Notes: a model not told the origin generated them from the sequence alone. A DNA stretch of 64,000 nucleotides from Tubulanus polymorphus (GCF_964204645.1 NC_134031.1:7440001-7504000); one strand, 5' to 3'. Counted from the first letter of the stretch, positions 541-64,000 are shown. Numbers and translations: made by a program.

Positions 541-16551
<16,011 letters not shown>

Positions 16552-22158: not shown

Positions 22159-22735
22159 TTAAACTAAACCATCAATTTTGAATCTTTATATGTATTTGAA
22201 ACTTAAAACAGTCTTCTCTTTGCTGAAGTTTAATCAAGCAGGCTAGAGAAAAAATGTTTACCTGTAAACTAGGTTTTCATTCCTATACAGTGTTCTCCAC
22301 AACAGGTTTAGAGGGGTAGCTACCCCTTTAATTTACCCCCTCTGAAATAGCCTGCCACCTTGATAAAATATCTGCTGTGCCTACCAGAAGATTACTAATA
22401 GGGCCTACAACAAAATTAAGCTTTAAGTTTCTGCATTTTTGGCGGATTTAAAGCTTTGCTATTTAAGCAGCCCTGATATCATACACCAGAATGCAGCCCC
22501 TTTAGAAGTACAACACATTGAGAGCACTGCTACAAACCTTAATTTTGATTATCTTAAAAAAAGATTGCTGTTTGTAGGCATGAAAACAGTTCGATATATG
22601 TTTAATAGGGTTCAGGTTAGGCTACATTATTGCCGGTGTATGGTGTCACTAATCCTTCACCATGTTTTTACCGGAACATGAATATAGTCGCTATATCAAA
22701 CTGGTTTTTTTTCAACTTAATAGTTTCAGTGAAAG

Positions 22736-31700: not shown

Positions 31701-34700
31701 GTCTGGACCCCTGCTTTGCCACTGAGGTTGGCCTTTTCCTCAAGATAAAGATATATAACTAAAACCTGCAAATTTGATATCCATCCCCTTGGAATTTGCA
31801 TCTTTTAGGATGCATCCTTTCAAAAGTATCTTAAGACCAAGAGTGGAATCCCATTAGTGGCTTTTAAGATGGCGGCTCTATATGAGGAATGCCTTTTCTT
31901 TTGCATCCCAGCCTTCAAAATTTCGTTGATCAACCCCTGATACTGTACCAATTGCTGAAAAAAGCGTTTCATGCCAATGGAAAACTTGTGGGTCAGGAGA
32001 GGTATAAGAAACTACATGTATATATTTCTAATATCCTGTAAACATTTATTGTTTTTTTGTGCTGATATATCAGCAAGTTGTATTAAAATTTAAGAGGTGA
32101 GATACTTAATTCATGAAAGTGGTTTCTTTAAACTATGTAGTAATTTGTAACAGAGTTTTCACTTTTCCAGGTTAATTCAAGTGATGGCTCAACTCAAGTT
32201 GGTAAAATCTCTAAGCAATGGACAGGATTGGTTAAAGAATACTTTACCGATGCTGATAACTTTGGTGTGCAATGTAAGTGTGGAGTGGTAACTTTGATAT
32301 CATTATCGATTCTATCCCTGTGGCAAACAAGGATAGTGATTGAGAGTAGTGGCTGAAGTGATATCAGCCTTTGGTTACTGGCTTCATTGAGGTCACTGGC
32401 CTTCAGTTGGAAGTTGATTGAAATTTTATTTAAAAAAACAAACTGTTATACACCCCATCGGGACTGTCCCTTGTTTTGCCTACTTTTTTGGTCCAAGTTT
32501 TTACAGAATATTCCATGAGCGCTCAAAATATTTTGTTCACGAGTGTTTTATCTATTGTGAAAGTCTTCCCTAGAATTTAAAGTGTATATTTTGTTGTACA
32601 TTTTAGTCCCAATGGATCTGGACGTTAAAATGAAAGCGGTGATGTTGGGCGCTGTGTTTCTGATTGTAAGTATCGCTGTACTTCCTTGTAATTTGGTATG
32701 GAAAATTTGAGAATGATATTTTTTCTTGCGAAATGTAGTAGACCTCCTACAAGGCTTCATCATTGATAGCTATCAAATAATTCTTAAGTGTGGAAACTTT
32801 TGCAGGATTTTATGTTTTTTGAACAACAAGGACAAAATTCCCATTCCCATGCGGCTACAGGCTTACTTGCCCATTCTCTATGGAATGCTTGATAATTCAT
32901 ATTCAGAATTGGTAACAAGATGATATTCCGGAATTTACAGTTCATAACGTTTTCAGTTATCTAAGGGATAATTCATTCATTACATACCTTGATATCTTAG
33001 GAGTTCTTTGTTCCCCTCCTGTGGGCAGTTTAGTTCTATTGGTACTTCCCGACACACATATGTACCGTAGGTACATCCAATTTCTGTTTTTAATCGCTGA
33101 CTTTTTCTTGTGAAAACCAGTCGTAAGAACCTGAATATTGCTGCTCCCTAGAGGATAGGAATCATTCATTTATTACGTACGCATAAAATTTGAATTTTTC
33201 AACCCCCTTCCCCTCATGTATGCAAAAGCGGCCATTTTTTCGTATACATTAAGCATTACAATACGCAATTGCACTTACCCCTCCTCCCTCCCCTAATGCG
33301 TACGTAATAAATGAATGACCCCCATATCGAAACAAATTTCTTAGATTTCATGTAAACACTTGCATACATGCAATTTCCTCCCTATTATACTATGTTACAA
33401 ATGAATGATCCCTTATTTTTTTTTCGCTTTTAAGTTTTCATTGGAACGGTTTTGACACACTTGAATGATTACCTTTGATTTATTGTGTTTAGAATTCTTT
33501 GAAAATTTATTCATTAGCCCACTTGGGAATTTAGTCCAATCGGGCTACTGTGTTCACTTTTCCTCTTGGGAAGGTTTGAAGACACTTCAATGGATTATCT
33601 TGATATTTTGTTTATACATGTATGTGTATCTTAACATCGGCTGCCCGCTTGTTATGTATAAATGTGTTAATCTTTTTTCTTTAGGATTTCATGTTTTTTG
33701 AAGATAATCAGCAAAACAATCATTATTAGTAAGAAATTCAGTTCATAAATTGTACGATAACAGATTTAACAACTATGGTTAACAAAGCAATAACCGTATA
33801 CACACATATACAATTACCCTATATAATGAAGTTACTAACAAGATTTACCTGGTGCACACAGTTATCGCCGAAAGACAACCACCGTAATTGATAACCTTAT
33901 CAAGTTCATTTGTAACAAGGCTATGTATACAGCCTGCCAGCTTAGGTGGCTATGTTCGTTGAACGTTACTCTTCGATTGAAAGTAATCTACAAGCGTCTA
34001 AGTTAACTAGTCCATTGTTGACACACCTGGGGTCAGTTATTCTAAAGTCGGTTGGAGTTAACCAATGGATAGTTGAGAGCAAACAAACAATCAAAGCTAC
34101 ATTGTTATCATGGTATTTACCTGATGGTTACTGAACCAACTTTTGAGCAACTGGCCCCTGGGACCTTATTCACTAACGTCACACAAGTTTGCGTGGATGA
34201 TTTGTGTTGGGAGACCATTTGCGATGAAAATCAGTCTGCGTTGCGTGGTATTCACTAAAGTCCTTGTAAAAGTGATTCGCAATTTTTCACGCAGTGGGAA
34301 CCAGTCTAACCAATGTAGATCGTGAAACATCACTGCAAATTGATATTTGCAGTGATATTTTCATCTTTTTACCGAAACGATAGCTGGATTCTTGTGGTGA
34401 CCTCATTGAAAATAATTTGTATTTGTTTTGATTTATCATCAAAGAAACAATTATCATATTTACATTAACATAACATTTCAAATATTCATTATCCATGATG
34501 GGGAATGGACGTACCTTTTTAGCCCACTTGGGACTTTAGTCCCAGCGGGCTATTGCGTTCACTTTTTGTCCGTCGTCCGTTCGTCCGTTCTTCCATCCGT
34601 AGAGGGAATCCAGTTATTTTGGGAAGTTTTGAAGACGCTTCAAGGTAATGTCTTGATATTTGAGTTACACATGTATCTACCCTAGACACATCTTCAGCCC

Positions 34701-36667
34701 AAAAACTGGCCCTATCAGAATCAAGATGGCCGACTGGCAGCCATTGTTGTTCGCCAAAATCAGCACTTTTTACACATTTTTGAACTTATTGAGGGAAATT
34801 TTGAAGACGCTTTGATCAATTTCCTTGATCTTTCCGATATATGTGAACCCCCCCAGGGCCCATCAGCATAACAAAAATTGGGTCGATCGGACTTAAGATG
34901 GCCGTCCTATGACCTTTTTAGTGCCCAAAAATGATAATTTTGGCCCGAATTCTGAGTCCTGTAGCTTCCTACTGGTTTACCATTTCTCATTGCAATTTTG
35001 ATGGGCATTCTTTGGAAAGGGATGTTTTATACCTGAGACTATTTTATACCTGAGAGTTATTTTTCATCAGCCAATTATGACGCAATTGGCGGCCATCTTG
35101 GTGTCACCAGTACTCATTCGTAAGTGGGAAAAAGTTTTTCCACATTATATTGATACCTAAGCGTATTTTGTTACCACAATCATTTAGAAAGTTGTAGCTC
35201 ATAACGTGTTCTATGATTGTAGTGAGTTTCAAGGTCATTGGATTTTGTATATGGCCACCAGGGGGTGTTGAATAATGCAATATCTTAGCATTTCTATATT
35301 ATATTCGTACCTATGCATATTTTGTAACCACAATCAATTGGAAAGTTGTAGCTCATGACATCATCTACTATTGTTGCGAGTTTTAAGGACATTGGTTATT
35401 CTATATGGTCACCAGGGGGCGTTGAATAGTAGAATAACTTAATATTTCCTTATTATATTGGTACCTAGGCATATTTTGTTACCATGATCAATTGCAAAGT
35501 TGTAGTTCATGACATGTTCTATGAATGTGATAAGTTTCGAGGTCATTGGGTTTTGAATATGGTCACCAGGGGGCGTTAAATAGTAGAATAACTTAGTTTT
35601 TCCATATTAAATTGGTAACGAGGCATATTTTGTTATCACAATCAATTACAAAATCGTAGCTGCTGACATGTTCTATGATTGTGGTGAGTTTCAAGGTTTC
35701 GCATTGGTTTTTGTATATGGTCACCAGGGGGCGTTGAATATTGAAATTGTTAGATTGTTGAGCATTTGGAACCACTTCCCAAGTGGGCATGGTGTCCCTG
35801 GACCCCTAGTTTAACTTATGATTGATTTTATGATTTTGATATCGACAATACTTTGATATTTAATTCCTTCTTAAAAGTCTTTTTTTCTTGATCAAATAAT
35901 TCTGTAAAAGTGATATAATGATGGAGCCCGCCCACCATAAGGCAAACACAATGGTCAATGCGTTGGGTCTTAACTAACAATGAATCCAAATTGGGCCCCA
36001 GAATATGTTAGTAGGGTACTGGTCTAAAAACTGTACCTTGAAATCAATTATTTACATAATTTTGCTTTAAAAAGCCACAAAAGTATTATTTGGGTGGAAA
36101 ATGAGAATTTAGGGGTGCCCCTTAGTTCATGCAGATTTGCGAGAAAGATTGATGAATTTGCGAGGAAAATATTTGCGTGAATTTTAGTGAATATGGAGAT
36201 TTTCACAAATTTGGAATTATGGGAGGATTTTCGACGAAGATTGCGTGCGTGCCAATAGTGAATAAGGTCCCTGGTAGTGAGAATTCACATTGGTATTTTT
36301 TGATACAATGGTAACGATAACTTTTATGTCACTGGCTCCTGTACTGTTAACCAACTGTTCTGTGTAGCAATGAAGATTGTAAGGTCCATGGTAACTACTT
36401 TTGCCGACTATGTTTTTTAAAGTGATTATGGTACTTTTCACCACGTGAATTTTTCATTAATCTGACCTTACAAACCTTAATCTGACCTTACAAAAGCTGC
36501 GGCAATAATTTACGTACTTAATGACATTTTTTTTCTTTGAATACCATGTTTTTGACGAAATCTAAGTAAACACACTTATGACGGAACCTTGCGATAAATG
36601 TTGTATTTTCTATTTTCAGGATTTTATGTTTTTTGAGCAAAATCAACAAAATCAGAATAATTATTAG
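22736..36667 (+). CDS. PLSCR: Phospholipid scramblase (PLSCR family)
   Basis: Exons 22736-22991 (Pro/Gly/Tyr-rich N-terminus), 23629-23748 ([24 protein letters not shown]; GC donor), 28995-29072 ([18 protein letters not shown]), 29269-29345, 30245-30375 (Cys-rich), 31054-31171, 32171-32273 ([18 protein letters not shown]), 32607-32665 ([19 protein letters not shown]). The last exon is one of 32806-32892, 33685-33729 or 36620-36667, all starting DFMFFE. Confidence 0.95.
25960..26475 (+). mobile_element. 5'-truncated non-LTR retrotransposon (RTE-X/L2-like 3' end)
   Basis: C-terminal [33 protein letters not shown] zinc knuckle, then a 3' UTR, AATAAA (26445) and an (AATTG)n tail. Confidence 0.75.
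26532..26841. mobile_element. MITE (Harbinger-like TIRs)
   Basis: TIRs AGCCGCGATCACA / TGTGATCGCGGCT. Internal subterminal GGCCAAATTTGGCC repeats. Confidence 0.7.
26855..27032 (-). mobile_element. tRNA-derived SINE
   Basis: Minus strand has A box TGGCGGAATGG and B box GTTCGAACCCC, followed by SINE core-like GTGCCCTTAGACAAGGCA. The cloverleaf stems are broken. Confidence 0.7.
34518..35811 (+). mobile_element. HINE/DINE-1-like element with 154-bp tandem array, copy 2 (5' fragment also at ~33516-33630)
   Basis: TT-TAGCCCACTTGGGA subTIR, inverted TCCCAGCGGGCTA, (GTCC/GTCG) microsatellite, four ~154-bp units (35257, 35411, 35565, 35723), 3' subTIR TCCCAAGTGGGC, hairpin GGTGTCCCTGGACCCC, CTAGTT end. 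Confidence 0.85.
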
Positions 36668-47468: not shown

Positions 47469-48118
47469 AATTGGAAAAATAACCGAGACTTACCTGGAAG
47501 TTGAAGGTTGTTTCTAATTCTGTCGAACTGCTGACCAATGGAGAGGTTACATGAGATACGCATGCGTAGATCCGACAGTCAATGTTCAACTTGCGAAATT
47601 TATCACAAAGTTACAATGGTGAGGTTAACTGGGTGAGGTTAAAATAAGGGAGTGCATGTAACCTCTCCATTGGTCAGCAGTTAGACAGAATTAGAAACAA
47701 CCTTCAACTTCCAGGTAAGTCTCGGTTATTTTTCCAATTCTATCTAACTGCTGACGTCATTACGAGGTTCCATGAGATGTTCAAAGTTGTGATAAATGAG
47801 TAAACCATAAATTAAAAACAACTATAACGCAAATCTAAAATTTACCAAAACATAACAGCATATATTTGCTTCAAATTTCAGCAACCCAATCTCAGGGTTT
47901 CATAACAAAACATATTTACAGCTCAGGCGAATAAAGCAAAATGTTCGCCTAAAAAACCACCAACAACTTATTCACACTAACTGATTTGCAAAAACCACAA
48001 AATCCAATCTGCCAAAACCAAGCAGTAAGTTATCTAACAAATAACTACTCAAACTCAATGATTTTTAACAATCTTTCACCACTGCATAAAACAGATTTGT
48101 ATACACGAATATTCCAAT

Positions 48119-49044
48119 TCAAATTACATTGAAATTTGATTCATCAGCTACAGGTTTCCTGTAATATTTTCTAAACACTGATTGATTTGACCATCCTGCC
48201 GTCTTCAATATAGATTGTATAGGCGTATTATTTCTTTCTGCCGCCGTAGTTGCCGCTGACCTAGTACTGTGAGGCGTAAAAATTGTCATGTCAACTCCTG
48301 CCCTTGTAAGCATTACTCTTATCCACCTTGACAATGTATCTCTACTTATAGGTCCATGTGATTTCACATATGAAATAAAAAATTTTGTTGTATCACCACG
48401 CAATTTTTCTGTTCGATTAAGGTAAACTTTACAATAGTTCACAATACAAAGACGTCTGTCTGGTACATAGGCTTTTAATGTTATCTCGGCCTGATGGAAA
48501 CCTGGCCTGGACTGTTTTAACAAATCACCAAACCGAATTTTTAACTTGTTTGTGGTAAGCGTTATATTTCTCAAGTCGATCAGATATAGAGACTGTCCTC
48601 TCGTTGACCAGTTAACAGCGCCAGTAATAAAACAAACTTTAATGTGAGATCTTTTAGCGACAAACTAACTGCCGGAGACAGGCCTTTCAGGAAATTTAAT
48701 ACTGGTTCCACCGACCAAATAACCCTATTTCTGGGTAAAGCTGGCCTTAAATTAAATATACCTCTCATGAATCGGCTAACTATGGGTACCTGACCAATAG
48801 GAGTTTTATCTAGATACAAAAAGGTAGAAAGCGCTGATCTCGCTGTATTAATGGCACTGTAACTTAGGCCTTTAGAATACAACTCAGATAAGAAATCTAA
48901 TACATTATTTACACTTCCCTCGTAGGGATCAGCATTCCTCCGAGCACAAAAACCGAGCCATTTGCGAATTTGCGTTGAGTATTGATCACGTGAAGACTCT
49001 CGCCACGATGCCGTGATAATGTCTCTAACTTCCTGAGAAAACAC
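48119..49044 (-). pseudogene. DIRS tyrosine recombinase
   Basis: SAINTARSALS, LTGQR (catalytic Arg), FTPHSTRSA (HxxR), AGWS, FRKYY (catalytic Tyr). One frameshift near 48580-48600. Confidence 0.93.
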
Positions 49045-50963
49045 TCCGTCTGTTGTTGTACGCCCGATATCCTCGCCGCGAAAAGATTCATCTTCGGTAG
49101 CTCGCTCATCTGTCTGGACGGATGCGTAAGAAGAGTGCTGTGGACTCTGGAGGATAGGAGAATAGGATAATCAATTAGCATGTTTACACATTTAGAAAAC
49201 CAATATTGTGTAGTCCAAACTGGAGCCACAATGATTGCCTGAGCACTTTCTAGCTGCTTGGATTTTTTTGTAGCGTCTTGCCCACCAAACAGAAGGGTGG
49301 AAACGCATAGACGAACTCTTCATTACACGGTACAGAGAATGCATCAACTGCTTCTGCCTGTGGATCCGGTTTCCAAGAGAAAAACCTTGGAACCTTGTGA
49401 TTATTTCGGGATGCAAAAAGATCAATAGCTGGCTCACCCCAAATTTGACACAACTTTCTAAACACTATGTCATTCAGGCCCCATTCAGTGTTATCATGGT
49501 AAGTACGACTCATAGCGTCTGCCTCAGTGTTTAGGGCTCCTGGCAGATAAGCAGCTGTCAACCATAAACCTCTAGCCTTGCACCAAAGCCAAGTTTCCCT
49601 AGCTATAGCATTACATTTTTCCTTTCTGCCGCCCATATTATTTAAGTAGGCGACCGTGACTTGATTATCAATTCTAATCAAGATATGAGTATCTGTTTCC
49701 GTTTTACACAAAGCTTGTAGGGTGAAAAGGGCAGCTTTCATCTCAAGTTGGTTTATATGCAAAGCTGCTTCCCAGCTAGACCGATTTCCACCCGTCTTAA
49801 GATTTCCTCGTGTTCCTCCCCACCCTATGCCACTAGCGTCAGAAGTGAGGAAAATTTCTGCTGGGGGCCTGGAGATTGGGTGGCTAACTTTCATTACATT
49901 TTGAGTCCACCACTGCAGATCCTCTCTGCACTCTTGATTGAGTTTCATTTTTGCGTTATAATTTCCAGCAGAATTTTTCAGCTCTCTTAAGATTGTCACA
50001 CCTTCTATAGTATAGTTTGCCATACTCAACGGCCTGAAAACTAGCCACCATCGTACCCACTAGAACTGCTAAGTCCTGTATCTTAATAGACTCTTTCTTG
50101 AGGGCATTGCTGGCAAGTTTCAAAATTTTTTCCCTTCTTTCTTGAGTGAGGGATATAGTCATTTTTATAGAATCAAAAACCACGCCAGCAAATGTAACCC
50201 TTTGAGCAGGGTCCATCATTGATTTTACAGGATGAGTAATGAAACCTGCGCAATCAGAAACCTCATGGGTATCCCTGACAGTCTTTCTGCACAGTTGTAA
50301 GGTCTGAGCGACCATAAAACAGTCATCAATCCAGGTAACCAATTGATGCTTCCTCAATTGAGAGAGAATCACCTTGACAATTTTAGTGAACAACCTCGGA
50401 GCTGACGTTAGTCCGTTCGGCATGGCATTGTAGGAATAGTATTTATCTCTCCACCTGAACTTGAAATATTTTCTAAATTGGTCTGCAACAGGAATACATT
50501 AATACGCATCTTTCCAATCAATAGTGGCCATATAACATTTAGGAGTAATCAAGTTAATGGCAGAATCTAGGGTGTCCATCTTAAAATGATGATATACAAT
50601 GACCTTATTAAGTTCTGTAAGATCTAAGATAACTCTCAAAGAACCATCTTTTTTATCTCGAGTAAATATGTTGGATACAAATTGGTCTCGTTCTTTTTTC
50701 GACTCTTGAATGACACATTTCTGGAGCATTTTCTCTACTTCCAAATCTATCAAATCTATCTTGTGTGACATGGTGACATCGAAACAGTATGGTTTAGGTT
50801 CTCTAAACTGGTTGGATACATTCTCAAATTCAATTTCGATGCCCCTAACCAACGACAGGATGTGTCGATCAGACGTTAGAGTTTTCAAAAAATCCAAAAA
50901 CTGAGCAATTCTGCCAGCTTTAAAATTTTTTACATCTGACTGAGCTTTAGCCAAGATGGACAC
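48909..50963 (-). pseudogene. DIRS reverse transcriptase / RNase H / Dam-like methyltransferase
   Basis: RT: RVILDL, DWKDAY, MPNGLTSAPRLFTK, WIDD. RNase H: SDASGIGWGG, HINQLE, IDNQ, NTEADAMSR. MTase: DLFASRNN..YAFPPF. Contains stops and frameshifts. Confidence 0.92.
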
Positions 50964-51010
50964 CTTATATTCATCCCACTCTAGATCAAAACTAGTTACC
51001 TGCCTGTTAG

Positions 51011-52058
51011 CTACTTGTTTCTTTCGGCCTTCTTTTTGGTGCCCTGGTTGCTTTGGTATGACCTCACTCTGTTGCCGCGGCCTCTCTGGTACTGATGGTA
51101 TTGTTGGTTGGAGGATTGATGACTGGAGTACTGTTGGCGGGAGCGTTGGTATTGGTAATGGTACGCGCCGCCCCCTCGCTTCGCTAAAAAATGAGGTCTC
51201 ATTTTATAATTCTGTATTTTAGAGTCACGTTGAGAATACTCTTTGTTGAATATGGCGCCAACTTTAGAGGGGTCATTGAGCTCTTTGACCTTATTTGCCA
51301 AGTCAACTCCAAATAAAACTTCAGAGGACTCTTTAACACTCTTACTGGCACAAATCGAACGATATTTTGGGTTTATGTGAGGTCTAAGTTTGTAGCGCCT
51401 TTGCTCTGCCAACGAGTGTATGGCTGCGCATGAAAGCGCAAACACATCCATCGTCATTTTAACGGCAAGTTTCAGATCATCTTGCTCCTTATTACTGAAA
51501 GCTCGATAAAATTCATCAGCTAAATATACGCCAGCATAGGCGGCTTTCGCCATTTTTGTGCCCATTTTTTGCAATTTAACATCATGGCTTCTACATTCTG
51601 ACGATATCGAAGACCAGATTTCTGGATTGATTGCGGGAGACCCCACAGCGATATTTTCGGTCAGACTAAACTTTGCAGGGATATTTACCTGGGCCGTTTC
51701 GCTGGAGGTTCGCCCTGAATAATAGCGCACATTTTTTCTAACTTAGAGTCAATAAGACTGCCCACTTTAGATAGAATCATAGCCTCAATTCCATCAAATT
51801 CATGTGAATTTTCATCATGAATTTCAAGCGCCGGTGAGGGATTGCCCCCATTACCACGGTTAGAAGGCTTGTTTTTATCCAACTTTCTGGTACGGGATCT
51901 GTCTTACTAATTTTAGCGACTGAGGCACACTCCGCGCTCGACTTATTAGCCGAGTCACCATGATTTTGAGGAAATTGTGAAAGAACACTTACTTCGTCAT
52001 TCACTGCATTTTTCTTCCATTTCTTCCATTCTTCCATTTCTTTGGCCATGATCGGCAC
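51011..52058 (-). pseudogene. DIRS gag-like ORF1 (frameshifted)
   Basis: PAINPEIWSSI..DVKLQKM..QRRYKLRPHINPKYRSIC..LFGVDLANKVKEL, typical of DIRS ORF1. Split across three frames. Confidence 0.75.
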
Positions 52059-52373
52059 CGGTAAAATTCAAAATGGCGGAGCGGTTCCGACACGCGAACA
52101 GTGAACACCAGAAAACAAAATCCAATCGCATCCACCAACAAAAAATTTTGTAACACAATGTCAAACGCCCAGCGTTGCTTAGATGGCCTAACAAGACGAT
52201 TGCGCCTTATAAGTTAGGTTTTGACACCGATAAACGAAAATTCGATCCCTTCAATCCGAATAATAGAACGACAAAGCACTGAACTTCGCCGGATCAAGCA
52301 TGCAATTGACTGTCGGATCTACGCATGCGTATCTCATGGAACCTCGTAATGACGTCAGCAGTTAGATAGAATT

Positions 52374-53131
52374 CGACATCCCCTGGGCTAGCAGAAAGAA
52401 TGGTTGTTTGAGTGGCACTAGCCCTTGAAGATGTATCCACAGAAGCGTGGCCGTCTATCCCTTTCAGGCCTCGATAACTGAGAAACCTGGGGAAATGATT
52501 TCGGATTTCCTGCGGAAAGGGGAGATGGTACCTTGTAAAGTGTTTCAGCTTAAAGCCTGTAATGATCGCATGGCATTAGCATCCAACTTTAACATCCAAT
52601 TAGATATTTTTGTATATCACTCCATATTTCCGGATCCAGGTAGGCGTCCTGGGGAGAGACGACTCGACTCCATTTATCCAACGGGTTTGAGGCAAAATGG
52701 TATGTATGAGATGGACAGATCAATATATCGTTAGTGTAAATCCAAATATCTGCTTGACGATGTCGTTAAAACGGGTGTTTCTCTCGCCTTCTAAGTTCCA
52801 AACAGAGATAAGAGCCTTGTTATCGACCAATGTTTCGACTCTCCGGTGTTTCGACTGGCCAACTAATTTCCCGTTGAGAATTCGCAAGCCCTTCAGTTTC
52901 CTTTAGCTGTTGTCTCCTGGTAGCCAGTAATCTGTTCAAGGGTACGTGACATGTCCTTCTGTCAGTGGTACCATGCCGTATCCTGACAGGGAAGCATCTG
53001 TAGCCAATTGAAAAGAAACGTGCTTTTCCACTCTCCATTTTACAAAACCTTGCCAATCCTCGAGAACCTCCAATGCAACACGCTTAAAGTTACCATCCAC
53101 CGAAGTAATATGGAAAGTGGGCTTTCAGATC
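52374..53131 (-). pseudogene. Older degenerate tyrosine-recombinase retroelement, RNase H/MTase half
   Basis: Minus strand reads LEDWQGFVKWRVEKHVSFQLATDASLSGYG, KETEGLAN, VDNKALISVWN, IDLSISYIP..SNPLDKWSR, LDANAMRS..LKHFTRY. Contiguous with 46770-47468 once the DIRS1 element is removed. Confidence 0.72.
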
Positions 53132-53188
53132 AGAGTACGAGAGTACGAGACACCACTCATCACCACAAGTAATTTTTTTTCCTTATAA

Positions 53189-56100
53189 ATGGGGGAGAAT
53201 GAACATCAGCCAGAAAACAATAATGCTAATAAAAATCAATATTATTGCCCATATTGTAAAAAATACATCGATAAATCTAATAAATCTTAACATGAAAAAT
53301 CTTCAAATCATATAAAAAATGTTATAGATTTTGAAACTCCAGAAAATTCCAATGAAAGAAAAGAACGATTAGAAAATATGAATGTGGATGAAATAAAATG
53401 TGAAGTTTGTGATGAATTTATAACAAAAAGGAATTATATTAGATTAATAGAATAATATAATAAATTATAATATCTCGAAACAGAAAAACACCGTCAAAAT
53501 TTGAGAAATAATGTTTTAGGAATAGATAATTTTGATGATAAAACTCAACAAGTAAAAAAACCAACTTCAAAAACTAAATCCATTTCAAATAAACCTTACA
53601 TGGAAAATGTTAGAAATTATATTGATTCACTAGAAATAAGAGATACAATTGAAATATTAGAAACATTACGTAGTAAAATTGGTCCTGCAGCTATTATATT
53701 TAGATTTTTTAAAGGTACAACAATAGAAGATTATAGTAAATTTAATGAAATGATAGAAAAAATACTAGATTTGATAACAGATGTTGAATATCCAAAAATT
53801 AGTATCTCTGGGAAAGTAAGTTTTTTAAAGTCAGAAGATAAAATGGATTATGATATTCAAACACTCTCTGAAGAAATAATTTCAAAAACACAAATAAAAG
53901 AGAAGTTAGAAAAAATATTTAATGAATTTAAACGTCATATTGAAGAAAGATATTTTGAGGGTTCTGGCTTAACATTGAATGAAATTATATTTTTAGATTT
54001 AAATGTTTATAATACAAAAAGAAATAAAACATCAAAAAGTAATAAAATGTTTAAAAATGATTCAAACTTTACAACAGAAAAGGAGTATATTAAAGCATCA
54101 TCTTATATTAAATTACCATTTACAACAAAAGCAGTAATAAATATTCAAAATGAAGATAATAAATGTTTTCTATGGCCAATTATTAGTTGCTTACATCCAA
54201 CACAGGAAAATGTTTGTAGAATAACAGATTACCGGAAATATGAAACATTATATAAAATTGATCAATATCCAGTAACTATAAAAATGATTCCTAAAATAGA
54301 AAAAGTTAATAATTTAAAAATAAATGTATTCGAATTAATGCAATTACCAAAGACAAAAGGTGAAAATATTAAAGATTATACATTGGAAGCTTTATATTTA
54401 ACAGAATATTATGATGATGAAAATGCTATAGATTTGTTATATTACAAAAAAGATGAAAATGAACATTATATGTGGTTAAAACAAATTGATTTATTCTTTA
54501 GAACAGAAAGTGATCATCATCATAAAATTTATCTATGTAGAAAATGTTTATCTAAATTTATGACTGTGAATACATTATTAAAACATAAAGAATTATGTGA
54601 TAATAAAGATTTTTGTAAATTAATAATGCCAACAGAAAAGATTATAAATTGAAATTTACTAATCATAAATTCAAAAATATTGTTCCATTTGTAATTTATG
54701 GGGATTTTGAATCGTTGAATAAAGAATTAACTGATCAAGATAGAAAAGAAATATATAACAAAAAGCAATTATTAAAATCAATGGATAAAGGAAATGAATT
54801 AAACGAAGACACAACACAAGACCCGCCAATTATAAATACAATTAAAAAAGTTCATCAAAGAGCTGCTGCTTATGGAATTTACATCAAATCAAATTATCCC
54901 GAATTATATGAAAGTCAATATATTTCTTTTAGAGGTGAAGATGTAGTTAATGATTTTTGTGACAAAATGATTGAATTAGAAAGTGATTTTGCAAAATTAT
55001 TAAACAAAAATAAAAGAATAGTTATGACAAAAGAAGATGAAATTGATTTTAATTATGCTACTCATTGTTGTTATTGTGAAAAACGTTTTTATTCATTTGA
55101 TAAAAAAGTTAGAGATCATAATCATTTAAATTCAAAATATCGTGGAGCTGCACATGAAGATTGTAATTTACAAGCTAAGAAAGTTAATTTTGTACCAATA
55201 TTATTTCATAATTTATCAGGCTATGATACCCATCTATTTATAAAACAATTATCGGGAAAATTGGGCGCAATTAATCAAGAAATAGAAGAATATAATGCTA
55301 TGAATGGTGTAAATGTAAGAAAATATGATTTTAAACTATTAGCTAAAATATCTGAAAATTATATTTCATTTCAATTTGGTTGCATTAGATTTTTAGATTC
55401 TTATAGATTTCGAGCAAGTTCATTAGATAATTTAGCAAAAAGTTTAGTTGATAATGATTTTGTTATAACTCGATATTATTATCCAAATGAACAAGATTTT
55501 AAATTATTGAGATATAAAGGTGCAATGCCTTATTCATTTTATAAAACACACAATGATTTTAATGTAACAGAATTATTAAAAGATCAATTTTATGATCAAT
55601 TAAAAGAGGAGTACGTGAAAGATGAAGTGTTTAATAGAACATTAAATATTTGGAACCATTTTAAGATGAAAAATCATGGTGAATTAGTTGATTTATATTT
55701 AAAATCAGATGTTATGATATTGGCTGACATATTTGAAAAATTTAGAGAAGTTAATTTGAATCATTTTAATGCTGATCCTTGTTATTGCTACTCTAGTCCT
55801 GGTTTAAGCTGGCAATGTGGTTTAAAATACACAAATGTAGAATTAGATTTATTAAAAGAACCAGACATGGTTTTATTATTTGAAAAATCAATTAGAGGTG
55901 GAATTAGTGGTGTTATGGGAGATAGGTATTTTAAAGCAAATGATGAATACAAATTATTATATATTGACGCCAATAATCTATATGGTTGGGCAATGATGCA
56001 ACCTCAACCATATAAAAATTTTATATTGACAGAAGTTGAAAATGATGATAAAACTGATTGGGAAAGCGCAATTGTGAGTTTAAAAGATGAAGCACCAATT

Positions 56101-58228
56101 GGTTATTTCTTTGTAGTTGATTTAGAATATCCTGAAAATATAAAGTTTAAAACAAGAAACTTACCTTATTGCCCAGAACATTTAACTGTAGATGATAGTT
56201 ATTTAACTGAATACCAGAAGAAAATAAAACCGAAAGATCATGTTTTTACAGAAAAATTAATACTTACTCAAAATAATAAATACAATTATATTGTTCATTA
56301 TAGGATGTTAAAATTTTATCTAAAACAAGGAATGAAATTAAAGAAAGTACATAGATATATTGAATTTAATTAATCGAAGTGGTTAGAAAAATATATAGAT
56401 TTCAATACTCAACAGAGATTCATATCAAAAACATATTTTGAAAAGATTTCTTCAAATTAATGAATAATAGTTTTAATGGTAAAACATGTGAAAATATTAG
56501 AAATAGAAATGATATTGATTTAGTAAATAATTCTGAAAGATTAAGACATTTACAATCAAGTCCTAGACATTTAGGAAATAAAAGATTTGAAGATTATTTA
56601 ACAGCAGTTAAATTAAAAAGATCGTCAATGAAATTTAAAAAAACCTATATTCATTGGTTCAACTGTTTTAGAAGTATCAAAATTATTAATGTATGATCTT
56701 TATTATAATGTTTTACAACCACTTTTTGGGGAAAAACATATAGAAATCTTATATTTTGATTCTGTTACAGCTGACACCCCAATATTATTAAAATGTAATG
56801 ATAAAATATTGATAAGAAGAATTTCAGAAATAATTCCAAAGGAAAATGAACGTTATATTTCATATGGTGAAAAAGAATTAATATAAATAAATGGTTTAAT
56901 GAATGTTTGGACAAGAAATGGATGGAAAAAATTAAAGAATATTATTAGGCATAAAACAAATCAGAAAATCTATAGAGTTAGAACTAAATTAGGGTTTGTA
57001 GATGTTACAGAAGATCATAGTTTAATTAAACGAAATGGTGATGAAATTAAACCAACTGATATAAAAATTGGAGATGAATTATTACATAAAAGATTTTACC
57101 CAAGAATGAATCATATGTCATTCGACGAAATTATTGATAATATTTATAATATGGAACCTGAAACATTAGAAGAAAAAGAATATTTTATCAAAGGATTTTT
57201 TATGGGAGATGGTTCAGCAGGTGTGTATAATTATGTTTGGGGTAATAAATATTGTTGGTATTTATGCAATCAAGACTTAAAATTATTAGAAAGAATTAAG
57301 GAATTCTGTGAAGAAGTTTATTCACATAAAACATTTAGAATCAAGGCATGTTATGAAATCATCAGCAGTTTATAGAATACTTGTAAATAATCCTAAAGAT
57401 TTTGCTATAAAATATAATGATGAATTCTATATTCATGCAATAGTGAAAAGTAATACTTCAACAAAAGAAAAGATAGTTCCAGATTATGTATTATATCCAG
57501 ATTATTTATTAAGTATAAAAAGATAACCTTTGCGCAAAAAGGAAAAGTTGCTATATCAGGATTAAATGTATTATGCAATTCATTAGGTTTTAATATGAAT
57601 ATTGGATTGATTAAATCTAAACCAAATTGCTTTAATTTAAACCATGTAGAAAATGAGTTAACAGAAGAAGTTAAATATTTATTTGAAATATGTAACCCAA
57701 CAGATTATGTTTATGATTTATCAACTGAAGATGGCACATTTAACTGTGGATTTCCATTAATAGCCAAAAATACGGATGCGTACATACTAAAAATCAAGAC
57801 AAATGACATAACAAAAGACTTAAAAACATTAAAACATCATTTTGATTTTAGCAATTATCCCAAAGATCATGAACTATTTAGCAATGATAATAAAAAGATT
57901 CCTGGAAAGTTTAAAGATGAATTAGGGGGTGATGAAATGATTGAATTTGTTGGGATAAGAAGTAAAATGTATAGTTACAGAACAAAAGATCATGAAGCTA
58001 AAAAGTTAAAAGGAATAACAAAACATGTGGTTGATAAACATATAGAATTTCAAGATTATATAAAGTGTTTATATAACTCAATTGTAATGAAACACAAAAT
58101 GAATTGTTTAAGATCAGAAGATCACGAGATGTACATTAATGAAGTTGAAAAAAACTAGTTTGAATCCATTTGATGATAAAAGGCATATTTTAGATGATGG
58201 TATAAAAACATTACCTTATGGTTATTAA
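53189..58228 (+). pseudogene. Protein-primed family B DNA polymerase (pPolB) containing an intein
   Basis: N-terminal C2H2 fingers, OTU-like INIQNEDNKCFLW..EHY region, ExoI VIYGDFES, EndoVII-like insert, ExoII FHNLSGYD, ExoIII YLKSDV, motif A IDANNLYGWAM, motif B KLMNNSFNGKT, motif C LYFD|TDAY split by the intein, PGKFKDE, KLKGI, C-terminal PFDDKRHILDDGIKTLPYGY. Several stops and frameshifts (53288, ~54650, 56371, ~56445, ~56640, ~58150). Confidence 0.95.
56761..57771 (+). mobile_element. Intein with LAGLIDADG (DOD) homing endonuclease in pPolB motif C
   Basis: Block A SVTADTPILL (Ser1), block B DVTEDHSL (TxxH), block C FIKGFFMGDGSAG, block F YVYDLSTEDGTFNCG, block G IAKN followed by Thr+1. 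Removal restores YFDTDAY. Span is 1011 bp. Confidence 0.93.
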
Positions 58229-59541
58229 AATGGATCAATATCATCAAACTCGAAATCACTATTGGTTTCTTCTTTTTCATTTAATTGTTCTTGTATAATT
58301 TGTTTAGGTTCTTCCATTTCATTTTTCTCATTTAAATAAAGTTCTATCTTGTACCACATTTCATCTCGCTCTCTTTGTTTCTTTTTGTTCGTTAATTCAT
58401 CAAATGGAATTATAATATCGATGTTTAAATAATTTACAATCTTATTTAAAAAGAATTCATAATTAATTGAATCTGTTATTTTATTATCCACATAATATTT
58501 TAATATGTTTGTGAACGTTTCTTTTATATTTCTTATATCTTCTTTTGTTAATTTAGGTTTTTTATAATAATCGTTAAATAATAAATATAAATACATTTTC
58601 TTTTCTTGTGTGTTAAATGTTGACGGAATAATTGTTTTTATTATATCTTTTTTAGTTATTTCGCCATTTTTATTTTCTATTTTTTTCATTTTTTCAAGCC
58701 ATTGCTTATATTCTGGTGTATGATCTTCCGTAGAAAATATTTTAAAAATTTCATCTAGATATTTTAATTTTGGTTCTATAAGAATATTTCTAGTTTTTTC
58801 ATCACCCCATAAATTCTTTTGCCATCCACATTCATTACAAAATATCACAGGACCTTCTTGTCTTAAGTACTCATAAATACATTTTGGGCATTTTTGTCTA
58901 TCATTTCTTAGTAATAGATCTTCATTAAGCTCTTGGTATTTTCTTACGTTTTCTTTATGTTTTATTGTTCTATTACGTAGATTTAAATTACTTGTTGTAA
59001 TAATCAATTTACAATAATATGTTTTTCTTACTAATTCATTATATTGTTTATCTAACTTTTCAACTATTTCTTTATTATCTGGTAACGTTTTCTCATATTT
59101 TATTTCTTCTAATAAACTATTTTTTCTTTCATTGAATTCTGTTTCGAATTTATTAGAAATTTTATCTATATGTACTTTACGAAATTGATGATTCTCCCAA
59201 GCTTCTATATTTTCAGGACTAAATTTCATTCGGCAAGGCTCACAGAAATGATCTTTTATATTATCCTTGTCAAAGAATAAGAAAGGTCTTTTCCAAATAA
59301 CTTCAGGTTCAGGTTCAGCAGAATTACTATTACTTTCGTTACTATCAACATTAACCGTTGCGTTATTAATTTTAGAATTCTCTGAATGTTTTTTAACATA
59401 ATTTCTTGAGAATAATTTATTACATTTTGGGCAGTTTATTTTAGGGGGTTTATAATTTTCATCATGTTTTTTCATATGTCGCGCCATATTACTTTTTCTT
59501 AGAAGTTCACCACAAATTTCGCATGGTATCATCTCATCCAT
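58225..59541 (-). CDS. Zinc-finger protein with C-terminal poxvirus/NCLDV late transcription factor VLTF3-like domain (438 aa, intact)
   Basis: N-terminal C2H2 fingers. Zinc ribbon CPKC..GPVIFCNECG, then KLKYLDEIF and INYEFFLNKIVNYLNI..LTNKKKQRERDEMWYKI, resembling the VLTF3 consensus (YxxxLxK..L..K...D.IWKKI). Its stop overlaps the pPolB stop (TTAA 58225-58228). Confidence 0.68.
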   Translation of the reverse strand: MDEMIPCEICGELLRKSNMARHMKKHDENYKPPKINCPKCNKLFSRNYVKKHSENSKINNATVNVDSNESNSNSAEPEPEVIWKRPFLFFDKDNIKDHFCEPCRMKFSPENIEAWENHQFRKVHIDKISNKFETEFNERKNSLLEEIKYEKTLPDNKEIVEKLDKQYNELVRKTYYCKLIITTSNLNLRNRTIKHKENVRKYQELNEDLLLRNDRQKCPKCIYEYLRQEGPVIFCNECGWQKNLWGDEKTRNILIEPKLKYLDEIFKIFSTEDHTPEYKQWLEKMKKIENKNGEITKKDIIKTIIPSTFNTQEKKMYLYLLFNDYYKKPKLTKEDIRNIKETFTNILKYYVDNKITDSINYEFFLNKIVNYLNIDIIIPFDELTNKKKQRERDEMWYKIELYLNEKNEMEEPKQIIQEQLNEKEETNSDFEFDDIDPF

Positions 59542-59610
59542 TTATTTAGGAAAAATTTTATTAAAATTAATTTTTAGTGATGAGCGGTAATTTTTTTTAT
59601 GTTATAAATA

Positions 59611-60369
59611 ATGGTAGAATTAAAAGAATACAGAATATTTGTTGATTCTAGAAAACGTACAAATTATAAATCACATAATTTATTAGTACAATTAGATAGA
59701 GAATTTAAGAATTGTGTTGATTTGAAATTAGTTAATATAAGTTTATGTAATTCTTTTTATAATGTATCGGATAAAAGTCTAGAACATTTAATTTTTTCAA
59801 TCTTTTACAAAAAAAGGAATAAATGGTTTTTTATATATTTAAAACCAGGATTATATAATTTAGATACATTAGCACAAGAAATTAATAGAAAAGCTCGAGC
59901 TTAATTAGGAAGTGATTCCGGATTTAGTATTAGATTTTCAAAAAGTGATAGTTCTAATAAAATAAAGATTAGGTTAGCTCATGACGAACAATTTAAATTT
60001 ACAGTAAGAAAACCTTTAGGTAAACTGTTAGGAATTAACCCAGATATTGTTACAGTAAACGCAGAAGGTAGATCAAATTTAATACCTTACACACATTTCT
60101 GTATTTATTGTAATTTAATTGATCCTACAAAAACATTTGAAGCAACTAAAGATACAACATGTAATTCTAGTATATTAAGTATTTTACCATTGAAGAACGT
60201 TAAACAATTTGGAACGCAAATAAATTATAATTTAGCTGAATGTGATTTTAAACCTTGTATTCCACATTTCAATAATTTTAAATTAGAAATAAGAAATCAC
60301 AATGGATATCTAATTGATTTAAATAACTTTCCTGTGATATATGAATTAGTTATAAGATGTAGAGAGTAA
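59611..60369 (+). pseudogene. Minor capsid (penton)-like protein, single internal stop at 59902
   Basis: Read-through gives 252 codons: IFVDSRKR..FKNC..L.NSFYNV..KPGLYNL..EIN..LGKLLGI..CIYCNLI..ILSILP..FG..FKLEIRNHNGYLIDLNN.PV.YEL, a single jelly-roll penton pattern. Confidence 0.7.
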
Positions 60370-60385
60370 TTTTTTCATTATATAA

Positions 60386-60745
60386 ATGAATATAACTGTT
60401 GGACCGAGTATATGTTTTGGGTTTGATTGTAAACGTGAGAAAGAAATGAAATTTAACATTAATGATGTAATTATACATATTAAAAATATTGCATTTTCTA
60501 ATGAAACATCATTTGAGTATGAAACAACAATAGATAAAGAAACTTTAAATGTAGAAAAGATTACTAATTTAATTAGAGAATCTTTAAGATTTTATGAATT
60601 AGATGAAGATTTTATCATCGATGATATTAAAAAAATAATAATTGAAATATATACAAATGAAACTAGTAATGAAATAAATGTTGAATTAATCATAAATAAG
60701 ATAACTAACTATTTTGAAGATAGTAATTTTTTGATTAATAAATGA
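60386..60745 (+). CDS. Hypothetical Polinton protein (119 aa)
   Basis: Intact ORF preceded by the conserved TAATTTTTT..TAAATG motif. Confidence 0.6.
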   Translation: MNITVGPSICFGFDCKREKEMKFNINDVIIHIKNIAFSNETSFEYETTIDKETLNVEKITNLIRESLRFYELDEDFIIDDIKKIIIEIYTNETSNEINVELIINKITNYFEDSNFLINK

Positions 60746-60973
60746 GTGATAATAAGTGGATAATAACTGGTTTATATAATGGAGCCTTACTATCAGTTGG
60801 AACTGTTGGTTATTCAATGGTATTAAATAAGAAGTATTTAAAATGTGAAGTGTTAATGTTGATAGATTTGATATCAATGATATTTTAAAATTAACATTAG
60901 CAGTTACTTTATCTAATTTAACTATTGATTATTTGGAAAAACAAAAATATATTCCTCCCATATAAATGCGTAA
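60742..60973 (+). pseudogene. Small Polinton protein (frameshifted)
   Basis: Motif-preceded ATG at 60742. MSDNKWITGLYNGALLSVGTVGYSMVL / ..DRFDINDILKLTLAVTLSNLTIDYLEKQKYIP resembles small conserved animal-Polinton ORFs. Confidence 0.55.
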
Positions 60974-60989
60974 TTATTTTACTAAATAA

Positions 60990-61415
60990 ATGGCTTCTGC
61001 AATTATAACTATTATAGGATCGGCAATTGTTATCGCTTTAGCATTTACTGGTGGTGGTTATTTATTTAAGCATATTGATAAAAATAGTTCATTAGGAGAA
61101 CAAAGAAGACATAACTTAGCATTAGAAAAATACAATAAAGCAGCAGAAGAATATAGAGAAAAGAGGCAAAACTATATGGATTATATTAACAAGGAATTAT
61201 ATGATCAGAAGATTTCACATAGAGATTTTCAATCAGTTAATGATGCAATGAGTTTATATAACGCGGTAAGCAATAAAGAAAAATTACATCTATACAAACC
61301 TAAATTATCAGATTATTATACCCCAAGTAAAGAACAACAGAAATATGAAATAATTTGGATTTTAGGCGGAACAGTTATTGTTATATTTGTAGCATATAAA
61401 TTTACTAATAAGTAA
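60990..61415 (+). CDS. Conserved Polinton protein with N- and C-terminal hydrophobic helices and central coiled coil (141 aa)
   Basis: MASAIITIIGSAIVIALAFTGGGYLF..EQRRHNLALEK..DYIN..DAM..Y, a pattern recurrent in invertebrate Polintons. Motif-preceded ATG. Confidence 0.7.
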   Translation: MASAIITIIGSAIVIALAFTGGGYLFKHIDKNSSLGEQRRHNLALEKYNKAAEEYREKRQNYMDYINKELYDQKISHRDFQSVNDAMSLYNAVSNKEKLHLYKPKLSDYYTPSKEQQKYEIIWILGGTVIVIFVAYKFTNK

Positions 61416-61430
61416 TTTTTTTCTAAATAA

Positions 61431-61884
61431 ATGGATGATAAAGTTGATAATATTGATATTATTCCTCATGATATAAATAAAACTAAATTAAAAATATATT
61501 TAGAAAAACAAATATTAGAATTTGAAAAAGATTTAAAAGTTATTAAAAATTCATATTATTTAAAAGAAAAAATATTTAAAATCTAAAATTATATATTATT
61601 TGATTATAATTGGTTCGGTTACAATTAGTTCTGTAATAACATTTCTAGCAATATTTTCGCCATTAACACCTTTAGCTATATCAATTGGCGTATGAGGATT
61701 AAGTTCAAGTGTTTTAACTGCTATAAGTTCAAAATTAAATATAAAAAGTAATAAAGAAAAAATTAAAACTAATATAAAAGAAATTAATAAATTAATGAAT
61801 ACACTAGATTATATAATACGTTTAAATGGCCATATAACAGTTGAAGAACAAGATAAATTATTAAAAGAATCAATAAATTATTAA
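61431..61884 (+). pseudogene. Two-TM coiled-coil Polinton protein (disrupted)
   Basis: Motif-preceded ATG. One frameshift and one TGA. Hydrophobic IIYYLIIIGSVTISSVITFLAIFSPLTPLAISIGV*GLSSSVLTAI. Confidence 0.55.
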
Positions 61885-61899
61885 TTTTTAATTATATAA

Positions 61900-63306
61900 A
61901 TGGTAGATAGTTTTCCAAAAGCTTTCCAATATAATAAATCAATTAAATATAATATTCCAGCAATAGATTTTAATAAAGATATTTCATATAGAAATGAAGT
62001 TTTAAATTCATTAATTGCTTTATATATTTATGTTACTGAAACTAATTATTTTAATGTTAAGATGGGAAATATATTTCATGTGTATACAATTAATTTCAAA
62101 AATTTAAATGAGGCAAAACAATGGTTATTAAAATCTAATATGAAGTATTGGCAGAACCAATTAAATGTTGCTGTTTATTGTGCAACAACAGGATGTGGAA
62201 TTAGTTGGAATGATCATTTAAACAAACCAAGTTTACCATTGATGTTATCACTCTTTAGATTTCATACATACTTTCAAACAATATTAATATTAGATGAATT
62301 AGAATGTCCTTTACCAGGTTCAAAATTTTTTAAAGAATTGAATAATAATATTAATTTTTCTAAGGTTATAAAATATGTAATGAATTTAATATTAATTCAA
62401 ATAAAGATTTTAGAGCCAAAATTGGAACAATGGGTGGATTAGGAATATTATATACTAAAGAATTTGGAAAAATAATGGCAAATTCAGATATAAGAACACT
62501 AAATTGGAATGAATTACCAAAATATTATAATAATATACAACAACAAAACAATAATTGTTGGGTTAATTTCATTTTAGAAAATAGTGAAGGTTTTACTAAA
62601 GCTGGAATACAAAGAATAAATCAATCTATTAGAACTTATTTGATATGTATTTTAGGCGCGCAAGTTGAAACAAGATCACCAATAGTTGGAAATGATAACA
62701 CTTCATTCGATGCGCAGAAACAATTCAAAGTATTATTTGAAGATTTAATTCATAATGATAAAAATAGATCGATTCCAGAAAACATTGTAAGATATCAAAA
62801 TTCTTTAGATAGTATTATTTGAAGATTCAATTCATAATGATAAAAATAGATCGATTCCAGAAAACATTGTAAGATATCAAAATTATTTAGATAAATCTCA
62901 TGTAAGACTAAATTATTGTATAGGCCCTAATCTATTAATTATTTCTAATGATTTAGTATTAAAGATGGGAAATATAATTGGTTATAATAATCTAATTAAA
63001 ACTGCAACAATAAATAATTCATTTGGATTGAATGATATAAATAAAAAGATAATTACTGCTCCCAAATTAATGGAAGGTGAAAAAAATAAAAAACACATTC
63101 AATCAACTGAAGCTAAAACTAAAAATATTAAATTGGATAATGATTCTAAAATAAAAGATTACAATACTACAGAAAATATTAAAACTGATAATATTCAACA
63201 TGAAATAATTAAACTAAATGATGATAATAAATCCCATGAAAATGCTAAATTAGCTTTAACTTTTATAGGAATTGTAATCGGAGGAATATTATATTTTAAA
63301 TTTTAA
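61900..63306 (+). pseudogene. Conserved Polinton protein with C-terminal membrane anchor (disrupted)
   Basis: YWQNQLNVAVYCATTGCGIS..HL, FRFHTYFQ, SEGFTKAGIQRINQSIRTY..CILGAQVETRS, DAQKQF, IGYNN, C-terminal LALTFIGIVIGGILYF. Broken by a frameshift at ~62370 and an 82-bp tandem duplication (62729-62810/62811-62892). Confidence 0.72.
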
Positions 63307-63322
63307 TTTTTTTATTATATAA

Positions 63323-64000
63323 ATGGATGTAGAAATTCCATTGGATCCTTTAGATGAACCTTCTAATTCTAATTTACCTACACTTGAATATATTGATAAA
63401 GCACGTTCAAAGATAAATACTGAAAATGAAGTTACAGAAATAACAAAAAAAGAATTAAAATATGACAATTTAACTGATAAATTCAAACCAATATTAGAAA
63501 AATCTGGATTCAATATAACAAATGAAGGTGTGAATTATTTAGTAAAAGATTTGAAATATTTAAATGGTGATTATTATTGGAATTTGAAAGATGACTATTA
63601 TTTTAAGATTTCTTCTAATTAAAGTCTCGATAAAATAATAACAAAATCAACTTTTATTAAATTAGAACAATCTAGAATTAAGAAAATCAATAATGATGTT
63701 ATAACTGATGTTACAAAAGAAGAGATAACTCTAAATAGATGGGAATTTAATCGAAGAAATGATGATTTTTTGAAGATAATTAATGAAAATTTAGAACCAA
63801 AAACAATTCCTAAAGAAGTTGATAATTCCAAAACTAGTAAAAGTCAAATCAACCGAAGTTCAAACTGAAAAACTTTTACAAAATGGGTTACTTGATGCAA
63901 CAGATCAAGAATTAGAAGATTTAAATATATTTTCTGATGAAGCAATTAGAGAAATTATTAGTATGATTAAATTATTATTAGTTATAGAAATGAAGCTGAT
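63323..64000 (+). pseudogene. Hypothetical Polinton protein (disrupted, truncated by window edge)
   Basis: Motif-preceded ATG. The frame continues past the TAA at 63620. Confidence 0.5.

Follow-up and report, generated by a model that had tools for sequence, protein, structure and literature searches.

Motif C of the protein-primed DNA polymerase of family B (pPolB) of a Polinton-type element is interrupted by a 1011-bp insert in the DNA analysed here, a window of 64 000 nucleotides recorded for Tubulanus polymorphus (GCF_964204645.1 NC_134031.1:7440001-7504000). We consider it probable that this insert belongs, as a decayed copy, to a LAGLIDADG intein family residing in motif C of Polinton pPolBs, a family that is predicted to be self-splicing and has likely been spread by homing. 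The window copy is a broken fossil, and intact intein-bearing pPolBs are present in several Polinton lineages, the distant pPolB2 type included.

Structure of the interrupted polymerase gene

The insert occupies 56761..57771 on the plus strand. Frame translation showed that the N-extein ...HIEILYFD ends at 56760 and that TDAYIL... resumes in the same frame after 57771, motif C being split as YFD|S...KN|TDA. The insert starts with SVTADTP from 56761 and ends with ...FNCGFPLIAKN at 57771, and the parts of a class 1 intein, a Hint domain with a LAGLIDADG endonuclease, were recognised along it by motifs and profile match. Its N-terminal Hint region (56761..57090, the end being approximate) contains Ser1, block A (SVTADTP) and a TxxH block B (DVTEDHSL); the first LAGLIDADG motif, block C (GFFMGDGS), lies at 57193..57216; and the C-terminal Hint region (57706..57771) carries block F (YVYDLST), the tail FNCGFPLI and a Lys-Asn end followed by Thr+1, all on the plus strand. 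An initial annotation of the window, made from the sequence alone, had named these motifs within an insert of the same extent, and all of them were located in the window copy. A profile of 16 giant-virus inteins, from which the window and Polinton sequences were excluded, matched 56761-57771 exactly (242 bits, E 2.5e-75); when the Polinton region was codon-shuffled 100 times, no domain exceeded 1.3 bits. The insert occupies the same place in motif C as the inteins of archaeal and giant-virus PolBs, as had been claimed, and the signatures that the annotation gave for the Mimivirus PolB intein (P0531) were correct, at an identity of 34% to the window copy. PI-PkoII was the best solved-structure sequence match of the window intein. 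The Pfam family Intein_splicing, proposed earlier as a check, matched its N-terminal part (E 8e-5) at a level under the curated cut-off, and no match to Hog or BIL was found among the listed sequence or fold matches of the intein.

The stop at 56884 and the two frameshifts described previously are real, the frame changing near 57345 and near 57510. The annotation had spoken of a giant-virus-type intein with a homing endonuclease; its class 1 LAGLIDADG character stood, but the second LAGLIDADG motif is absent in the window copy, in which only the first is present. The residues for class 1 splicing given in the accessible part of PMC4031507 (Ser1, the Thr and His of block B, the Asp of block F, the terminal Asn and Thr+1) form a complete set in the window copy and in 5/5 intact relatives. 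A penultimate His, usual though not obligatory, is absent from the window copy, which has Lys at this position, as have P0002 and Mimivirus; the residue is Ser in P0001 and His in P0153, P0459 and P0460. Among 152 cut inteins, 65 had His-Asn ends and 62 had Lys-Asn ends. A spliceosomal intron was rejected as an account of the insert, which starts with TCT, ends with AAT and has protein motifs at both ends. G+C content is 25-26% in the window intein and extein alike, and base composition therefore gives no date for the intein.

The polymerase gene as a whole (53189-58228) was matched by PF03175 (E 1e-12) and grouped with pPolB1-type relatives in a tree. Its N-extein (53189..56760, plus strand) has 4 in-frame stops and 3 frame changes and its C-extein, from Thr+1 (57772..58228, plus strand), has one frame change near its end; with 5 in-frame stops and 6 frame changes in total, the gene is a pseudogene regardless of splicing. 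Motif C provides the two catalytic aspartates of family B polymerase chemistry. Since the insert separates them, an intact carrier would require either splicing or assistance in trans. The earlier proposal that polymerase activity would depend on protein splicing may thus hold for the intact relatives only, the window polymerase being dead.

The element and its flanking DNA

The Polinton-type element (53150..64000, the left end being approximate) was delimited by low G+C and a gene-start signal, and extends beyond the window's right end. Over the roughly 100 bases from 53100 to 53200 the G+C content declines from 41% to 23%, and it remains at about 22-25% up to the window end. Eight gene starts in this stretch share a stop, a T-run and ATAAATG, a signal found nowhere else in the window. 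From these sequence features the host-Polinton junction would lie near 53.15 kb. A short repeat, AGAGTACG-AGAGTACG, is present at 53132-53150, ~50 bases upstream of the polymerase start, and may be the element terminus or a remnant, while an RNase-H-like TDAS motif seen by eye in the stretch 52373-53190 gained no support from Pfam or tblastx. Downstream of the polymerase, a gene with one in-frame stop (59611..60369, plus strand) showed profile homology to a set of 10 genes conserved in Polinton-like contigs (E 4.6e-14). Its homologue is a conserved neighbour of the packaging ATPase in capsid-encoding Polinton contigs, and one such Polinton-like contig also encodes a double jelly-roll capsid, an A32 ATPase and an rve integrase. 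By position and size the gene was named as a likely minor capsid gene; a single-sequence fold model of its product had a pLDDT of 37. Major capsid, ATPase, protease and integrase gave no match within the window, past whose edge the element continues, and no terminal inverted repeat or 6-bp target duplication was visible within the window, the element's right end lying outside. Stops were also found in genes neighbouring the polymerase, and an 82-bp tandem duplication (62729-62892) interrupts a Polinton gene of unassigned function.

The flanking host-side DNA (47469..53130, minus strand) consists of a decayed DIRS-like tyrosine-recombinase retroelement and further sequence of 41-50% G+C. The retroelement (47469-52372, minus strand), with RT and tyrosine recombinase and with split inverted repeats at 47469-47739, stands directly left of the Polinton. 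The left flank as a whole is intron-rich and transposon-rich, with 33-42% G+C. It includes a QSOX- or PDI-like thioredoxin-fold exon with WCGHC that ends at a GT donor (16153-16632, minus strand), a Pro/Gly/Tyr-rich host exon (22733-23011, plus strand) and a scramblase exon (30959-31264, plus strand), of which the thioredoxin-fold and scramblase exons are not animal-specific. A repeat element built of 154-bp tandem units is present twice, in inverted orientation, at 8098-9089 and 34516-35811, and each copy contains a CCACCAGGGGGC-like core resembling a CTCF site (7 matches versus 0.06 expected). The CTCF motif is known from bilaterians. The flanking DNA, with the CTCF-like motifs as a help, would suggest an animal as the host of this Polinton copy, which is likely lodged in an animal chromosome.

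Alternatively, the Polinton stretch could lie outside an animal chromosome, either because misassembly joined a contaminant or a free virus to it or because the host is a non-animal eukaryote. The step in G+C over so short a distance would be in keeping with this, as would host exons that are not animal-specific and an element that leaves the window with neither terminal inverted repeat nor target duplication in view. However, the lesions of the pPolB and its neighbouring genes, together with the 82-bp duplication, amount to a decay unbearable for a replicating virus; the contigs of relatives reach 1 Mb and more, a length well beyond that of a Polinton; and the flank is of the intron- and transposon-rich kind described above, with CTCF-like motifs. 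We therefore regard such a joining or a non-animal host as distinctly unlikely, and treat the copy as one integrated in what is likely animal DNA.

Intact relatives in other Polintons

A search with the window piece of the intein returned 130 proteins; past the top Polinton matches, nearly all of those listed were RNA-primed PolBs or type II topoisomerases according to Pfam. Among P0003, P0044, P0049, P0051 and others of these proteins, the same intein group is also seen in type II topoisomerases, and several PolBs carry two related inteins. Full inteins at the motif-C site were found in five intact pPolBs, P0001, P0002, P0153, P0459 and P0460, and truncated intein-bearing pPolBs were represented by P0005, P0006, P0161 and P0416, the last with the window's own flank. 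The window intein is 57% identical to that of P0001 (64% over the N-terminal piece of the window intein), 45% to those of P0153 and P0002, and at most 38% to giant-virus inteins. In the nearest exteins, P0130-P0132 (67-69% identical), the site is empty and reads YFD|TDSYIL. A further 119 pPolBs, ranked by the P0001 N-extein, comprised 2 intein-plus, 106 empty and 11 uncallable records, and motif C was callable in 20 of 23 IMG/VR Polinton-like loci and empty in 20/20. No relatives of P0001 were found in viral contigs, and a metagenome scan gave at least 80 loci at 33-45% identity, none at Polinton level among the matches listed. Phage records yielded 2 weak matches and PHROGs yielded none. Polinton-type pPolBs were also met in bacterial/MAG records (P0133, P0219 and P0161; Sulfurimonas sp., a cyanobacterium), which are likely mis-binned eukaryotic or viral DNA.

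The Hint fold was checked on the intact relative P0153, the window piece being a sequence match only. P0153 passes the Pfam cut-offs of Intein_splicing, Hom_end and LAGLIDADG_3, and the model of its intein (pLDDT 93) matched the TliVMA intein, PI-PkoII and PI-PfuI (E 1e-16 to 3e-15). The five intact inteins are 44-50% identical between lineages, with 90/367 columns invariant, and S1, T87, H90, D328, N346 and both LAGLIDADG aspartates are invariant in 5/5. Among these pPolBs P0002 is a distant one, and it has a segment that by eye is VSR-like, as in the pPolB2 type; compared with the other Polinton carriers, its intein is 44-55% but its N-extein only 20-28% identical, one short-overlap pair aside.

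These observations also bear on the proposal that the insert is a cleavage domain of Hedgehog/BIL type, or a fused nuclease like the HNH/VSR insertions of pPolB2, and is not spliced. Hint-less nuclease insertions have indeed been described in Polinton pPolBs and the window piece falls under the Pfam curated cut-off, but the insert parts the motif-C aspartates, surrounds a LAGLIDADG core with a two-part Hint domain and ends in Asn|Thr, every sequence and fold match is an intein, and intact multi-copy carriers exist. An unspliced domain is accordingly extremely improbable, and an intein is the reading that we follow below.

Occupied and empty sites

Intein-plus and intein-minus Polinton copies, for which the annotation had proposed a search, were both found among the relatives, even within one family. 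The 90% cluster of P0153 has 136 members, 15 of which were listed: 7 carry the intein and are intact, their contigs measuring from 95 kb to 1.02 Mb, while 5 are empty and 3 are without the site. Extein identity in this cluster is 99.2% among plus copies, 96.9% among minus copies and 97.1% between the two. Of the fixed plus/minus differences, 10/11 fall at -6 to +44 residues of the site, an interval picked after the data had been seen. In one plus/minus pair 13/26 differences lie near the site, a clustering that 0/20000 shuffles reached by a scan statistic. When P0153 was taken together with two sister clusters, the site HCHYMD|TDSF was intein-plus in 7/7 records and 14/14 empty records had other haplotypes (QCQYFD|TDAM in 5, QYHYGD|TDAM in 4 and Q[LH]HYTD|CDSM in 5). 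Empty copies vary at 5/17 columns near the site versus 26/438 elsewhere (p=0.004).

Judged from these sequences, plus/minus differences clustered at the site would be as homing leaves them. A conversion tract or escape alleles would each yield such a site-near pattern, and either would imply an active endonuclease. No donor family was found for the P0153 flank, whose own intein-free family is still the best match (38/49). D-T-D-S is kept in 10/41 empty pPolBs of the intein-carrying subgroup versus 58/65 in the rest, a contrast that is only a lead, since the rows are related by descent. Motif C also varies in P0143-P0243 and the P0153 family, in the Polinton subgroup with inteins, where D-C-D-S, D-T-D-A and D-T-D-G are candidate homing-escape alleles.

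Phylogeny of inteins and exteins

The annotation had expected separate trees to place the extein with Polinton pPolBs and the intein with those of giant viruses. The extein did fall with Polinton pPolBs. The nearest neighbours of the intein were Polinton inteins, and these went with the giant-virus type, although their nesting within it was not secured. Polinton inteins, the window copy included, formed one clade (SH-aLRT 100) among 69 RNA-primed PolB inteins, which had been dereplicated from 187 of endonuclease size. A tree of 52 rows, for which 7 archaeal inteins of the same site served as the root, recovered the clade at 100/99; half of the 'other' rows (every second one), a long branch and a near-duplicate had been dropped from it. 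In the rooted tree it was sister (82/65) to one giant-virus subgroup, inside a branch of 88/96, and a 100/100 branch parted Polinton and giant-virus-type inteins from the 7 archaeal ones; this tree warns of long branches at its root. A clade of all RNA-primed PolB inteins to the exclusion of the Polinton ones was not rejected by the AU test (p=0.188), and passage from giant viruses to Polintons is thus the likely direction, though unproven. The tail FN[CST]GFPLI is shared by all Polinton inteins and one giant-virus subgroup, which is the sister group in the tree. In IMG/VR this tail pattern was found at 15 loci, 13 of them named giant-virus MAGs, and 14/14 inteins that were cut out lay in RNA-primed PolBs; in prokaryote genomes it gave 0 matches. 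The DNA at -9..+9 of the window site agreed with 82 giant-virus-type sites at 11.6 of 18 bases (4.8 at random), and this likeness makes a jump between polymerase classes plausible. The transfer from an NCLDV RNA-primed PolB to a Polinton pPolB that had been put forward for this element is consistent with its extein and with its closest non-Polinton relatives, which are in giant-virus-type RNA-primed PolBs, but the jump is not private to it: as the nearest inteins lie in other Polintons, the crossing dates from long ago, and the intein has likely travelled between Polintons since then.

Another donor or direction, whether an unsampled virus, an archaeal PolB of the L193/L194 kind or a passage from Polintons into one giant-virus subgroup, would be compatible with the AU result, and the best non-Polinton match of P0459 is a Promethearchaeota-bin protein (43%). 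Against this, in the best tree the Polinton clade is nested (88/96) and has for its sister the giant-virus group with the same tail, RNA-primed PolBs hold the allele far more often and in greater diversity (1882 representatives matched; 517 viral stretches), and the archaeal outgroup inteins are themselves in RNA-primed PolB. We consider such origins unlikely and retain a giant-virus donor as the likely one. In L193:5001-6008 and L194:5001-6008 (a Promethearchaeota bin and an uncultured archaeon), a PolB carries a giant-virus-type motif-C intein that is 42-44% identical to L018 and unlike the thermophilic archaeal type; these are either real archaeal genes or mis-binned viral DNA.

For the exteins, holding 6 intein-plus rows together in a 20-row tree was rejected (AU p=2e-52), and the intein-plus rows need 8 changes on a 62-row extein tree. 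Within pPolB1, the tree of the inteins is congruent with that of the exteins and both have diverged to a similar degree, extein versus intein identity being 68 versus 57% for the window and P0001, 67 versus 71% for P0153 and P0005, and 78 versus 80% for P0459 and P0460. This agreement also fits an old gain with repeated loss. The intein could then be real but have entered Polintons once, long ago, to be inherited vertically and repeatedly lost with precision, homing between families being rare or over; the congruence of the pPolB1 trees speaks for such a course, and change counts do not separate gain from loss. In contrast, the intein of pPolB2-type P0002 is nested among pPolB1 inteins, both LAGLIDADG aspartates are retained in 5/5 intact inteins, most differences between the plus and minus alleles within one family are found beside the site, and well-supported branches force at least 5-7 changes. 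Vertical inheritance with loss is therefore improbable in our view, and spread by homing is preferred.

Discussion

The likely history of the family is a single jump from a giant-virus PolB, homing spread among Polintons and integration into host chromosomes. The founding jump, out of an RNA-primed PolB, may have been enabled by the similarity of motif-C DNA across polymerase classes. It may have taken place during co-infection, and entry into the host may have been through the germline, as the annotation proposed. Where the copy is intact, the class 1 residues named above, from Ser1 to Thr+1, would run the four-step reaction; splicing would rejoin the two catalytic aspartates of D-T-D, and the polymerase would be expected to work only afterwards. 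The endonuclease is predicted to cut the empty site, with repair from an intein-plus copy transferring the intein and nearby flank. Integration of Polintons would have taken the intein into host chromosomes, here likely those of an animal, where the window copy died. A bolder version of this scheme has an active family in animal genomes, in which intact multi-copy Polintons need protein splicing in animal cells, homing of the intein continues from one integrated copy to another and across pPolB1/pPolB2, and intein-free sisters are driven to alter motif C (D-C-D-S, D-T-D-A, D-T-D-G) and so escape cleavage. This we put forward tentatively, as a possibility that falls somewhat short of an even chance.

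True inteins, according to the annotation, are considered absent from animal nuclear genes. Surveys do list none: Green 2018 (PMC5784728 and its supplement, in the parts available) gives 0 inteins for Metazoa, and inteins are called absent from metazoan genomes in the available text of PMC8529194. The window intein lies in integrated viral DNA rather than in a host gene. In the same accessible text of Green 2018 (PMC5784728), eukaryotic viral inteins are confined to giant-virus families and unclassified viruses. An insect iridovirus intein, cited in the portion of Ogata 2005 (PMC549080) that describes the Mimivirus intein, was already known, and this, the viral location and the fossil state of the window copy set limits to the significance of an intein in likely animal DNA. 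No report of an intein of Hint type in any protein-primed polymerase, that of Polintons included, was found in the full-text literature, in part seen as extracts, subscription papers and Repbase lying outside the search; PMC12220804, PMC3671162, PMC5718144 and PMC13768754 treat inteins only in general terms in their accessible sections.

With an intein in a protein-primed polymerase, an allele already known from RNA-primed PolBs is seen on the protein-primed side of the family as well, and giant viruses and Polintons are likely to have exchanged genes. It also presents the Polinton as an integrating carrier that brings inteins into likely animal chromosomes, and the family of plus and minus alleles as a testable homing system in a eukaryotic nucleus. 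In the available text of Krupovic 2024 (PMC11071308), nuclease insertions in polinton pPolBs were suggested to stem from intein invasions, a suggestion for which the present family offers a concrete case.

Among known systems, the Mimivirus PolB intein (R322, residues 1053-1403; Ogata 2005, PMC549080, as far as its available text goes) and its relatives resemble the Polinton inteins in the motif-C site and in Ser1/Asn/Thr+1. The Mimivirus intein has blocks A-G, including the Lys-Asn end, and a size similar to that of the window copy, to which it is 34% identical (37% to P0153). Its host polymerase is RNA-primed and Pol-delta-like, whereas the Polinton intein sits in a protein-primed polymerase whose carrier integrates into host chromosomes, and the Polinton inteins form a clade of their own as against the Mimivirus type. 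Archaeal PolB inteins (L199-L204 and L207, with PI-PkoII as the nearest solved match) use the same site, YxD|S...HN|TD, and have the same Hint and LAGLIDADG architecture, but are only 24-29% identical to the giant-virus type and form a separate clade. Inteins in viral-like DNA polymerases on nuclear scaffolds of two green algae, Klebsormidium and Tetrabaena, and a labyrinthulomycete, described in the accessible part of Gallot-Lavallee 2023 (PMC10710043), are like the present one in placing a viral polymerase intein in a eukaryote nucleus; those cases concern algal and protist hosts and polymerases tied to giant-virus insertions, in contrast to a Polinton carrier and a likely animal host here. 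The HNH and VSR insertions in Polinton pPolB2 described by Jeong 2023 (10.1101/2023.08.22.554363) likewise put a nuclease domain within a Polinton polymerase, but belong to other nuclease families, and the main text, as available, describes no Hint domain or splicing motifs and is without the word intein, whereas here a full intein splits the catalytic motif. In the Polinton inteins, an already known intein allele is thus seen in a host protein and a carrier of an apparently new class, and some of its members are intact and, it seems, mobile.
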